A stretch of DNA of 18,238 bases from a virus. Both the position numbers and the translations under genes were made by a program. Under the pieces are notes generated by a model. It saw only the letters and a list, made by a program, of their open reading frames with translations, was not told the origin of the DNA and did no database searches. The DNA is taken from IMG/VR virus record IMGVR_UViG_3300045988_164576, positions 1 to 18,238 of that record; one strand, written 5' to 3'. Shown one piece after another: positions 13,032 through 14,355 of the stretch (positions are counted from its first letter, which is position 1; the number at the start of each line of letters is the position of its first letter).

Positions 13032-13075
13032 GAAGTCGGGGTATAGTATTACCCCCGACTTCGTCACACGTCACA
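13032..13075 (+). other. CRESS-type rolling-circle origin: stem-loop with nonanucleotide TAGTATTAC plus abutting iterons
   Basis: Perfect 10-bp stem GAAGTCGGGG (13032-13041) / CCCCGACTTC (13053-13062). The 11-nt loop taTAGTATTAC places TAGTATTAC at 13044-13052. A tandem CGTCACA CGTCACA at 13062-13075 begins at the last stem base. Further CGTCACA and GTGAC copies lie at 13110-13141. All of this sits about 80 nt upstream of the Rep gene, on the same strand. Confidence 0.8.
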
Positions 13076-13155
13076 AAGTATTAAAAATAGCGTAAATACG
13101 CCGTTAATCTTGTGACCGATTTTGTTACAAACTTCGTCACAAAGGTGGTGATTAA

Positions 13156-14355
13156 TTGTCTGAGTTCACTTGTAAATCAACGTTCTGCGTTATAAACAAT
13201 CCTCGTTACGATATCACATACAAACACAATGAAGAGGGTGATATAATCAAAGACGAGAACGGCAAAGCGGTTATATTAAAGCAAGAGCCTACGGAGTATC
13301 ATTCATTGACAGAACAGCAGATATGTGATGATGTTCTTAATAAGTGGGTCGGTGATGATGATAAGCGAACAGGAGCGGTTTTATTCTGTGTGTCCGCCCT
13401 CGGTCTTGAACACTTACATTGTGTGTTTGAGAGTGAAAAGACGTTCCGTCCGCTGTCTGCTTTGAAAAAGCTTTTTCCTAAAGTACATATTGAGATAACC
13501 AAAGGAAACAAAAAGCAAGTCGAGGATTATATAAACAAGGTCGGCAAGTTCGAGGAAAAGGGCGAAAAGATAATCGCAAAATCGCAGGTTGGTGAGATAA
13601 AAGGCTGTCAAGGCAAGCGTAATGATTTGATTTCTATGTCTGATATCCGTGACTTGATTTACAGCGGACAAACTCCGAACGATATTTATCGACATTTTCC
13701 GCAGGCTATCAAGTCCAAAACTGCAACAGAAGAACTATTCTATTTGTATCGTAAGGACAACACACCGCCTGAACGTGATGTTAAAGTGCATTGGCTGTTT
13801 GGTGGTACAGGGTGCGGAAAATCGTACACATACATTGAACTATGTGAGAAGCATGGAGATGTAAATATTTATCGTGTTACCGACTATGACCACCCTTTTG
13901 ACGGCTACCAAGGAGAGCCGATATTAATACTTGACGAGTTTCGAGGGCGTATCTCATACAGTTATTTGCTCACTCTGATTGACAAATACCGTTCTCAGGT
14001 ATCTGCACGATATAGCAATAAAATGACGTTATGGACGGAAGTATATATAACTTCTCCGTTCCTGCCTACTGAACTATATCAGAAAACCGCTGAACGTAAT
14101 GACGGCATAGACAAGCTTGAACAGCTTACACGCCGCATAGATGATATTGTATATTGTTTTAAATACACGGCTGAGGACAACAGCGGTACATTTTATTGTA
14201 AATACAACGTTGATTTTGACCTGCATTGTGATAGTCACGCTATCCGTGAACAGTGTTCACACGTTCGTCACGAGGTTTCACAAATGGGATTGTTCACACT
14301 TATGGACGGCTTAACGTCAAAATTTGTTGAAAATAAAAACAAAAATATCGGCTGA
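13156..14355 (+). CDS. CRESS-DNA-virus-like replication initiator (N-terminal HUH endonuclease plus C-terminal SF3 helicase)
   Basis: TTG start follows AAAGGTGGTGA. Motif I is FCVINNP (compare circovirus FTLNNP), motif II is EHLHCVF and motif III is EDYINKVGK (Y-x-x-K). Walker A is GGTGCGKS, Walker B is ILILDEFRG and motif C is VYITSP. The spacing LDEF...LL..ID.Y...V......W..VYITSP mirrors the circovirus/nanovirus Rep helicase domain. Confidence 0.8.
   Translation: MSEFTCKSTFCVINNPRYDITYKHNEEGDIIKDENGKAVILKQEPTEYHSLTEQQICDDVLNKWVGDDDKRTGAVLFCVSALGLEHLHCVFESEKTFRPLSALKKLFPKVHIEITKGNKKQVEDYINKVGKFEEKGEKIIAKSQVGEIKGCQGKRNDLISMSDIRDLIYSGQTPNDIYRHFPQAIKSKTATEELFYLYRKDNTPPERDVKVHWLFGGTGCGKSYTYIELCEKHGDVNIYRVTDYDHPFDGYQGEPILILDEFRGRISYSYLLTLIDKYRSQVSARYSNKMTLWTEVYITSPFLPTELYQKTAERNDGIDKLEQLTRRIDDIVYCFKYTAEDNSGTFYCKYNVDFDLHCDSHAIREQCSHVRHEVSQMGLFTLMDGLTSKFVENKNKNIG

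Follow-up and report, generated by a model that had tools for sequence, protein, structure and literature searches.

A conserved CRESS-type origin hairpin and a pCRESS1-type Rep in an integrative filamentous-phage-like element of a human gut bacterium

The 18,238 nucleotides of the IMG/VR virus record IMGVR_UViG_3300045988_164576 that were analysed here (the window) contain, at 13032-14355, a hairpin followed by a gene for a replication initiator (Rep) of the kind known from the CRESS DNA viruses, whose genomes are circular, single-stranded and encode Rep. The two very probably form a working rolling-circle module, that is the plus-strand origin and the initiator, of element B. This unit is an integrative filamentous-phage-like element in a tRNA-Pro gene of a Hominimerdicola-like human gut bacterium, a Clostridium relative. 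The origin hairpin is genuine and conserved, and the comparative data that establish this are presented first, followed by the Rep protein, the repeats that it may recognise and the distribution of the cassette among related elements.

The origin hairpin and its conservation

The predicted plus-strand origin (13032-13062, plus strand) consists of a perfect 10-bp stem and an 11-nt loop, TATAGTATTAC. Direct reading of the sequence gives full complementarity between the arms GAAGTCGGGG (13032-13041) and CCCCGACTTC (13053-13062). The loop holds, at 13044-13052 on the plus strand, the nonanucleotide TAGTATTAC, which occurs once in the window, where 0.22 occurrences are expected on both strands. An earlier reading of this DNA from its letters alone (the sequence-only reading) had claimed this stem and loop, and re-reading bore it out; the distance to rep, which it had put at about 80 nt, is 93 nt from the end of the stem to the start codon. 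The layout is of the circovirus and nanovirus type, with NAGTATTAC in a hairpin loop, short repeats (iterons) beside the stem and all of this upstream of rep. By analogy, the nick is predicted between 13050 and 13051 (TAGTATT|AC), between positions 7 and 8 of the nonanucleotide.

The hairpin has a folding energy of -11 kcal/mol (z = -3.8), and none of 200 shuffles was equally stable. Perfect hairpin sites of at least 10 bp number four in the window against 0.3 expected. Above these chance controls, the strongest evidence for an origin comes from comparison, namely from the recurrence of the hairpin and the covariation of its stem. The comparative set comprises 125 relatives from viral contigs and species-representative genomes, which together with the window make 126 loci. 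At 97 of them, rep has within 1.5 kb a hairpin whose loop contains AGTATTA; in 94 cases it is upstream of the gene, with a median distance of 117 nt, and in 93 of the 97 the nonanucleotide reads TAGTATTAC. The structure is kept even at loci whose Reps share just 36-45% identity with that of the window. In a set of 41 distinct stems, pairing holds for 97.3% of cells as compared to 62% in shuffles, and all ten stem pairs vary on both sides in a compensatory manner. The resulting covariation score is 0.956, against 0.229 for shuffled stems and at most 0.21 for slid registers.

A 21-nt repeat at 10194-10214 was considered as a second copy of the origin and rejected: it lies within a small hydrophobic open reading frame (ORF) and has neither a complementary arm nor the nonanucleotide.

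The Rep protein

The rep gene (13156-14355, plus strand) begins with TTG behind the ribosome-binding site AGGTGGTGA (13143-13151, plus strand) and encodes a 399-residue protein of the pCRESS1 group, in which an HUH endonuclease is joined to a superfamily 3 (SF3) helicase. All motifs listed in the sequence-only reading are present in this frame. The nuclease part contains motif I, FCVINNP (residues 10-16, 13183-13203), motif II, HLHCVF (86-91, 13411-13428), and motif III, YINK with Tyr125 (125-128, 13528-13539), while the helicase part contains Walker A, GGTGCGKS (216-223, 13801-13824), Walker B, ILILDEF (256-262, 13921-13941), motif C, YITSP (297-301, 14044-14058), and an Arg pair (14131-14136), all on the plus strand. 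Across 32 homologues, down to 40% identity, the HUH residues F10, V12, N15, P16, H86, H88, Y125 and K128 are invariant, as are the helicase residues G216, G221, K222, E261, R326 and R327, with S300 almost so. The ratio of nonsynonymous to synonymous substitution rates (dN/dS) of the gene is 0.03-0.18.

The proposal of a two-domain HUH and SF3 Rep from the CRESS/pCRESS assemblage finds agreement in both profile and predicted-structure comparisons. The protein passes the Pfam model RNA_helicase (24.8 bits, cut-off 21.5), and 11 of the 32 family members match Viral_Rep at E < 0.01. Its sequence alone matches the solved CRESS Reps of a redondovirus (9pqq, E 1e-13) and of porcine circovirus 2 (PCV2; 7lar, E 1e-11), and a profile of the 32-sequence family reaches PCV2 at E 7e-19. 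An AlphaFold model with a mean predicted local distance difference test (pLDDT) score of 86.7 was compared to known structures by Foldseek. It aligns with the full-length vientovirus Rep (9pqq_A) over 338 columns at E 2.7e-15, with the PCV2 ATPase domain (8xms) at a template modelling (TM) score of 0.78, and with nanovirus and circovirus nuclease domains at TM scores of 0.74 (6h8o) and 0.73 (7kij). The best 50 of the 852 matches to viral structures are mostly full-length CRESS Reps. As modelled, both Rep domains have the fold of solved CRESS Reps.

The superfamily counts 495 clusters at E <=1e-30 and 8,709 at E <=1e-10. PHROGs and NCBIfam returned no match to Rep, and among the PLSDB plasmids there are distant partial matches to p4M of Bifidobacterium (helicase region alone) and to Staphylococcus Rep proteins. 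One related Rep (P0007), 76% identical overall, hardly differs from the window Rep in roughly its first 155 residues and diverges thereafter, a pattern that suggests recombination between the nuclease and helicase halves.

Affiliation with pCRESS1

Reference Reps for the plasmid groups pCRESS1-9 were taken from the supplement of Kazlauskas et al. 2019 (PMC6668415), where these groups were defined. The window Rep scores 186-210 bits with core pCRESS1 references, as compared to 79-120 with pCRESS2 and about 91-102 with pCRESS3. Its best BLAST matches are pCRESS1 references of Coprococcus, Fusicatenibacter, Ruminococcus and Streptococcus (35.6-38.9% identity, 179-210 bits), each of the 32 family members scores best to pCRESS1, and a neighbour-joining distance tree places the window Rep with the same references. 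According to Supplementary Note 1 of that paper, the Asn of motif C is conserved in CRESS viruses and in pCRESS2/3, yet not in pCRESS1. The window Rep has the pCRESS1 trait, a Ser in this position that is nearly invariant in its family. Its clade also shares an insertion of about 30 residues after motif I. By scores, tree and motif-C Ser, the window Rep thus belongs to the bacterial pCRESS1 group, outside the eukaryotic-virus lineages, and is not a recent import from a eukaryotic virus. The earlier description of a eukaryotic-virus-like replication module thus has to give way to a bacterial one.

Iterons and a putative recognition code

The proximal iterons, CGTCACA CGTCACA (13062-13075, plus strand), start at the last stem base and abut the 3' arm of the hairpin, as the sequence-only reading had it. 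Further copies follow at 13111-13141, namely an inverted TGTGAC (13111-13116), a degenerate direct GTTACA (13124-13129) and a direct CGTCACA (13135-13141), the last with ACTTC in front of it just like the copy at the stem. CGTCACA is found four times in the window, three of these within 80 nt of the hairpin. A promoter scan found no strong promoter at the iterons.

When the loci are compared, the position of the iterons is conserved and their sequence variable. They read GTCACA, GATACA, TGCACA, GTTACA, GTGACA, GGGACA, GGAAC and others, and within a locus all copies switch together. The layout is constant across types: a tandem pair at about +3 and +10, an inverted copy at about +51 and direct copies at about +64 and +76, followed by the ribosome-binding site and the start of rep. 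Along with the iteron changes a short peptide of Rep just before motif I. In Reps that are identical elsewhere in their first 170 residues, this peptide is FTCKSTF where the iteron is GTCACA, FNCRSAF with GATACA, FSCHSAF with TGCACA, FACKSTF with GTTACA and FKCRSAF with GTGACA.

In the cluster of the window's Rep (at least 80% identity, 32 loci), residue 5 accounts for all 1.95 bits of iteron entropy and residue 7 for 1.54 bits, while residues 2, 9 and 3 account for 0.86-0.99 bits each and columns beyond residues 2-9 (13159-13182, plus strand) for at most 0.28 bits. Family-wide, the mutual information between Rep and iteron is 1.97 bits against 1.10 +/- 0.11 in permuted data, a value reached by none of 10,000 permutations. 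Distant branches repeat the pairing: V-x-K is accompanied by GTTACA in 13 of 14 non-redundant cases, GGGACA is found with S-x-R and GATACA with N-x-R. Since the covarying residues lie before motif I, as in the iteron-related domain of geminiviruses, this sequence pattern argues that Rep recognises the iterons through this N-terminal segment.

Element B and the spread of the cassette

The 3' part of tRNA-Pro is present three times in the window, at 165-225, 7798-7858 and 15635-15695, the last copy within an intact tRNA-Pro(GGG) gene (15646-15722, minus strand). The three copies delimit two tandem elements, A (about 226-7807) and B (7808-15690). The left attachment (att) core of element B is a 46-nt copy of the tRNA-Pro 3' part at 7808-7853, found in the same variant at 175-220, and the right core is the 3' 46 nt of the intact gene (15645-15690), which leaves 7,839 bp between the cores. 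One contig (L002) corresponds to 7808-15690 of the window with the 46-nt tRNA segment at both ends, so that element B is a unit of 7,839 bp. It encodes an intact tyrosine integrase (14713-15621, plus strand; Pfam Phage_integrase E 3.5e-26, with Xer-like NCBIfam matches below their cut-offs) and the inovirus hallmark, a Zot/pI-type morphogenesis ATPase (10891-11688, plus strand), which matches Pfam Zot (PF05707) at E 6.5e-8 (32.7 bits, cut-off 20.3) and the PHROG 'morphogenesis (protein I of M13)' at E 1.8e-12. Gene order and size fit inoviruses, whose circular genomes of about 5-12 kb have a canonical order. As a whole unit, element B is conserved at about 95% identity in more than 30 contigs, and in the contig L001 it stands alone beside host genes.

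The sequence-only reading had recognised the inovirus-type context and the tRNA-targeting integrase; it had overlooked that the window holds two tandem siblings with non-homologous Reps and, likewise, that the iterons vary in step with the N-terminus of Rep. The Zots of elements A and B are 64% identical and their Reps share no similarity. Thus the two related morphogenesis blocks have replication modules that are unrelated to each other, direct evidence that modules have been exchanged.

A survey of relatives for the same Rep joined to Zot, as proposed in that reading, finds Zot beside rep at 58 loci, about 27 of them divergent, and mostly immediately upstream. Zot was detected here with a model iterated from the window's two Zots, and this model detected none at 61 divergent loci. 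The neighbours of rep at about the first 30 of these 61 include 15 tyrosine integrases, five to six serine recombinases, six Mob_Pre relaxases and two FtsK. Small integrative elements of a plasmid-like kind, with no phage genes, have the same cassette of origin and rep. An example is the circular 4.7-kb element L121, whose recognisable genes encode a helix-turn-helix regulator, a small Cys-rich protein, Rep and an integrase, and whose layout equals the right half of element B. The circular 8.2-kb genome L036, on the other hand, has Zot and Rep and no recognisable integrase. Terminal overlaps unrelated to tRNA are found only in L036 (127 nt) and L121 (99 nt); those of L002, L119 and L120 were discarded as proof of circularity, being tRNA-derived att cores. 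In the Rep tree, which has no support values, loci with and without Zot are intermixed. This suggests, as far as these sequences go, that the cassette was exchanged repeatedly between plasmid-like and phage elements. A 97%-identical Rep with an intact origin and a similar A+B tandem is found in the cultured species Hominimerdicola aceti (Sanger_31, L038).

A proposed mechanism and its alternatives

How could the module work? In the proposed sequence of events, the integrase would excise element B at the 46-bp att core to give a double-stranded circle. Rep would then bind the GTCACA iterons, two in tandem at the foot of the hairpin and, ahead of its own start codon, an inverted one and one or two direct ones, using the short N-terminal segment (residues 2-9) before motif I, in which residues 5 and 7 would set the specificity. 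On the extruded hairpin, Tyr125 of YINK would nick TAGTATT|AC with a metal held by His86 and His88, and Rep would stay on the 5' end. A host polymerase would extend the 3'-OH as the C-terminal SF3 helicase unwinds, and after one round Rep would cut and join the regenerated origin to release a plus-strand circle of single-stranded DNA (ssDNA). This circle would receive a coat of a small hydrophobic protein, and the Zot/pI ATPase would drive its extrusion through the membrane. A functional analogue is gpII of the Ff phages, an initiator that nicks a specific site in a hairpin-bearing intergenic region to produce plus-strand circles for extrusion. In contrast to the window Rep, gpII lacks a helicase domain and is a member of another HUH cluster; it is element A that carries a Rep of the gpII type (PF23343).

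Several points weigh against this account of element B. The biochemical steps, the nick position, the packaged strand and virion production are all deduced, from an anatomy, homology, fold, conservation, covariation and genomic context that were established here. Register and loop bounds of the hairpin were chosen for each sequence by stem maximisation, which biases the pair counts upward. Rep scores 15.2 bits with Pfam Viral_Rep (PF02407), below the cut-off of 26 bits, and the nuclease fold is supported by the predicted structure instead; the Rep tree was built by neighbour-joining and has no support values. Tarasova and Khayat (PMC8780604) doubt ATP hydrolysis with substitutions of the pCRESS1 type at the motif-C sensor position. 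The Zot of element B has no transmembrane segment, and its coat and ssDNA-binding proteins are candidates by features and position.

Other readings of the same stretch have to be considered as well. The part from the regulator over origin and rep to the integrase could be an independent integrative pCRESS1 plasmid that replicates only itself, lying beside a filamentous prophage without a replication gene of its own. Elements made of regulator, origin, Rep and integrase indeed stand alone (L121 and, judging from ORF sizes, apparently L119), loci without Zot combine the same Rep with integrases, Mob_Pre relaxases or FtsK, and in the sibling element A the same morphogenesis genes are accompanied by another Rep. 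However, the whole 7.84-kb unit is delimited by a single att pair and a single integrase, with no att-like repeat between its halves, element B contains no other replication gene, and the unit is conserved in its entirety in the contigs mentioned above. In addition, rep is directly preceded by Zot in divergent lineages as well as in the inovirus genome PQ006184, and the circular contig L036 has Zot and Rep together without an integrase. As an account of the present state, two adjacent elements are therefore improbable; they probably describe the evolutionary origin of element B. Could the whole unit then be an integrative plasmid that forms no virions and whose Zot-family ATPase and small membrane proteins serve another purpose, for instance DNA export or surface structures? 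No homology to coat proteins was found, and Zot does not have the membrane segment that Roux et al. use as a criterion. Against this stands an inovirus gene order of a small soluble protein, a small hydrophobic one with a basic tail, a large one with signal peptide and C-terminal anchor, small membrane proteins and Zot. Moreover, the best PHROG match of Zot is M13 protein I, relatives are present in the viral contig collection and related genomes have been deposited as Inoviridae, which makes a non-viral element very improbable.

The hairpin could also be a transcription terminator or an operator of rep, with TAGTATTAC in its loop by coincidence. Regulatory hairpins are common in intergenic positions upstream of genes such as rep, and the iterons could serve as operators; geminivirus Reps autoregulate at theirs. 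Yet no T-run follows the stem, a terminator scan did not select the hairpin, and a terminator would call for the reverse of an invariant loop on covarying stem pairs. At 93 of 97 loci the loop has the sequence of the CRESS nick site, and a role of the iterons as operators would be compatible with origin function. A purely regulatory hairpin is hence scarcely credible.

Relation to described systems

The pairing of such a Rep with an inovirus is already on record. Roux et al. 2019 (PMC6813254, Fig. 4b legend, Supplementary Table 5) list iPF_00203, a family of 56 inovirus proteins labelled 'RCR + helicase' with 38 Viral_Rep annotations, and describe it as having the superfamily 3 helicase (S3H) motif typical of eukaryotic ssDNA viruses. 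It is the same combination as in element B, likened here by annotation and motif table rather than by sequence, and the record consists of a table row and a legend remark without origin, iterons, phylogenetic placement or host. Complete circular inovirus genomes from rodent faeces, the bajarodino viruses (GenBank PQ006184 = L128, and others; Inoviridae), show the pairing as well. In PQ006184, Zot is followed by a hairpin with the loop CCTAGTATTAC, tandem TGTCGA iterons and a Rep about 30% identical to that of the window. Its origin (PQ006184.1, 930-1110) has the same design as that of element B plus further distal TGTCGA copies. By eye, the N-terminus of this Rep, SRKWLVTINNP, looks pCRESS2-like and not pCRESS1-like, which would mean that at least two pCRESS groups serve filamentous phages. 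In place of a tRNA-targeting integrase these viruses have an annotated 'transposase'; a literature search found no associated paper.

The sequence-only reading had wondered whether a complete cassette of origin and Rep on a Zot-encoding phage had been described: the pairing has, in iPF_00203 and in the GenBank inoviruses, and for the origin no description was found. In a search that lacked most subscription journals, and is thus weak evidence, we found neither an origin or iteron code described for pCRESS elements or inoviruses nor a link between pCRESS1 and inoviruses; equally, within that reach, nothing relevant came up on the nonanucleotide with inoviruses or on TAGTATTAC in bacterial contexts. 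Origin and recognition code thus appear undescribed. The section on replication modules in a 2026 taxonomy commentary names HUH, Rep_trans, RepL and transposase modules among filamentous phages and emphasises that modules are replaced; the helicase-fused Rep type is not mentioned in that section.

With pCRESS1 as described by Kazlauskas et al. 2019 (PMC6668415), element B shares Firmicutes hosts and integration into tRNA genes. These authors report viral structural protein homologues in none of their elements and inovirus Reps without a helicase domain, and their study contains no analysis of origins. Whereas pCRESS1 was described as plasmid-like and devoid of morphogenesis genes, the window Rep sits in an inovirus-type element, and Zot/pI lies beside rep in about half of its relatives, which qualifies the published statement. 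The absence of such genes is a described property of pCRESS1 and not a definition of the Rep clade. One pCRESS1 reference, CDF01935.1, is itself nearly identical to the Reps of two loci with an adjacent Zot (L124 and L125). The supplementary gene table of the same paper lists 'Zot / PHA00012 I assembly protein' (CUP05435.1) in a pCRESS2 element of Hungatella hathewayi (CZAZ01000001), an entry that stands against its main text.

Circovirus and nanovirus origins have in common with element B the hairpin with a TAGTATTAC loop, short direct repeats at the 3' arm, rep just downstream on the same strand and the Rep fold. Element B differs in its bacterial host, a genome about three times larger, its integrative lifestyle and the lack of a jelly-roll capsid gene, and its origin in having five iteron copies in a fixed tandem, inverted and direct layout, with an assumed nick site. 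For the geminiviruses, Arguello-Astorga and Ruiz-Medrano 2001, as relayed in PMC10653810, report an iteron-related domain of residues next to motif 1 that covary with the iteron in more than 100 viruses. Going by that account, the residues directly N-terminal to motif I track the iteron in both systems, although Rep lineage and iterons differ and in element B a single residue (position 5) tracks a single iteron base among near-identical Reps.

What could this mean for the evolution of CRESS replicons? That bacterial replicons have the circovirus and nanovirus nonanucleotide and an iteron code before motif I supports a descent of CRESS-DNA viruses from plasmids for the replication origin as well as for the protein. 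We would go further and propose that the CRESS origin-recognition system of hairpin, iterons and N-terminal reading code was already complete in bacterial pCRESS replicons. As a portable cassette it would have moved repeatedly between the filamentous phages of gut Clostridia and small integrative plasmids, and rapid switching of residues 5 and 7 with all five iterons in those phages would create private replicon specificities that let related phages share a cell, like the tandem prophages of the window. This proposal could equally well turn out right or wrong. If true, eukaryotic CRESS viruses inherited a whole cis-trans origin system from bacteria and not Rep alone, and a cultured anaerobe would become a bacterial model of CRESS origin recognition. 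Element B itself connects two catalogues so far published apart, that of pCRESS1 'plasmid' Reps and that of the 'RCR + helicase' family from inoviruses. How CRESS Reps read double-stranded origin DNA is listed as an open question in a structural review (PMC8780604), for which the near-identical Reps with GTCACA, GATACA, TGCACA, GTTACA and GTGACA iterons offer a natural mutational series. With the 97%-identical Rep and intact origin of the cultured Sanger_31, these predictions are open to experiment. HUH Reps of defined specificity serve as DNA-protein coupling tags, according to PMC7826260, and on that basis a Rep family with swappable specificity could be useful.

Further features of element B

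Reading from the left att core, element B starts with ORF91 (8086-8361, plus strand), a soluble 91-residue protein in the position that the ssDNA-binding protein (gV) has in the inovirus order and, from this position, a candidate for that function. It has no family match and no hydrophobic segment, and its synteny is conserved in L001 and L002. ORF59 (8379-8558, plus strand) is a candidate major coat protein with the expected layout of a neutral N-terminus, a hydrophobic helix (residues 30-57) and a basic C-terminus, RKLTHK; it has no homology support, and PHROGs gave no coat assignment. ORF534 (8573-10177, plus strand), which has a signal-like segment at its N-terminus and a membrane anchor at its C-terminus, is a candidate pIII-like adsorption protein and 29% identical to the 584-residue protein of element A. 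ORF55 and ORF81 (10188-10613, plus strand) encode small membrane proteins with hydrophobic segments and weak holin-like PHROG matches in the position of minor coat or assembly genes. Upstream of each Zot (4492-5286 and 10891-11688), neither of which has a hydrophobic segment, unlike classical pI, there is a small gene (3992-4294 and 10368-10613) whose product combines an N-terminal membrane segment with a charged tail.

Downstream of Zot, two genes on the minus strand (11719-12202) encode a 78-residue membrane protein with a hydrophobic segment and a candidate 80-residue Arc-like (ribbon-helix-helix) regulator; matches of the pair are phrog_13890 (E 7e-8) and an Arc-like repressor (E 0.007). 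A perfect 13-14-bp hairpin at 11691-11732, between Zot and the convergent 78-residue gene, is likely a bidirectional terminator. Divergent promoter-like sites follow at 12210-12321, a perfect TTGACA-17-TATAAT on the minus and TTGACT-17-TATACT on the plus strand, both of them consensus matches only. Two paralogous hydrophobic mini-ORFs of about 24 residues are encoded by a 111-nt direct repeat (10780-10890 and 12712-12822, 77% identical). Each is preceded by a ribosome-binding site, GGAGGTGATA, one stands right before Zot and the other before the origin, and their products could be pVII/pIX-like tip proteins.

Directly upstream of the origin, at 12886-12967 on the plus strand, short repeats of the GGAAT/TTGGA type form a 36-bp imperfect hairpin in a region that folds with z = -5.8. 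It is a candidate packaging signal or complementary-strand origin. As a family-wide feature it was rejected, since its conservation is limited to the window's close clade. Between rep and the integrase gene lies ORF77 (14404-14637, plus strand), a small conserved gene that has no family match and is found in the same place in L001-L003.

Element A and the flanks

Element A encodes a large signal-peptide protein of 584 residues, where the counterpart in element B has 534, Zot (4492-5286), a Rep of the G2P type (PF23343; 5395-6396) and an integrase (6393-7283). The integrase gene is interrupted by an in-frame TAG at 6783-6785, immediately before the conserved TGLRRGELLALSWDNIDL box, which could be a nonsense mutation locking element A in place, a sequencing error or a read-through codon. 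In the gap between Zot and rep (5287-5394), where relatives of the B type have their origin, there are GC-rich palindromes at 5296-5329 and 5333-5359, possibly the origin of element A. A regulatory segment at 1216-1383 matches 12330-12490 of element B with 91-94% identity at a different position relative to att, so that the gene orders of A and B are circularly permuted; the divergent promoter-like sites of element B adjoin its copy of this segment.

Identical 37-nt hairpins at 132-168 and 7766-7802 flank the two partial tRNA copies. Past the intact tRNA-Pro gene, the window continues at 15875-18238 with a tRNA-Met, a DUF4314-like gene, a DNA methylase fragment and a Bro-N/ANT gene, a flank also present in L001 that probably belongs to another mobile element.

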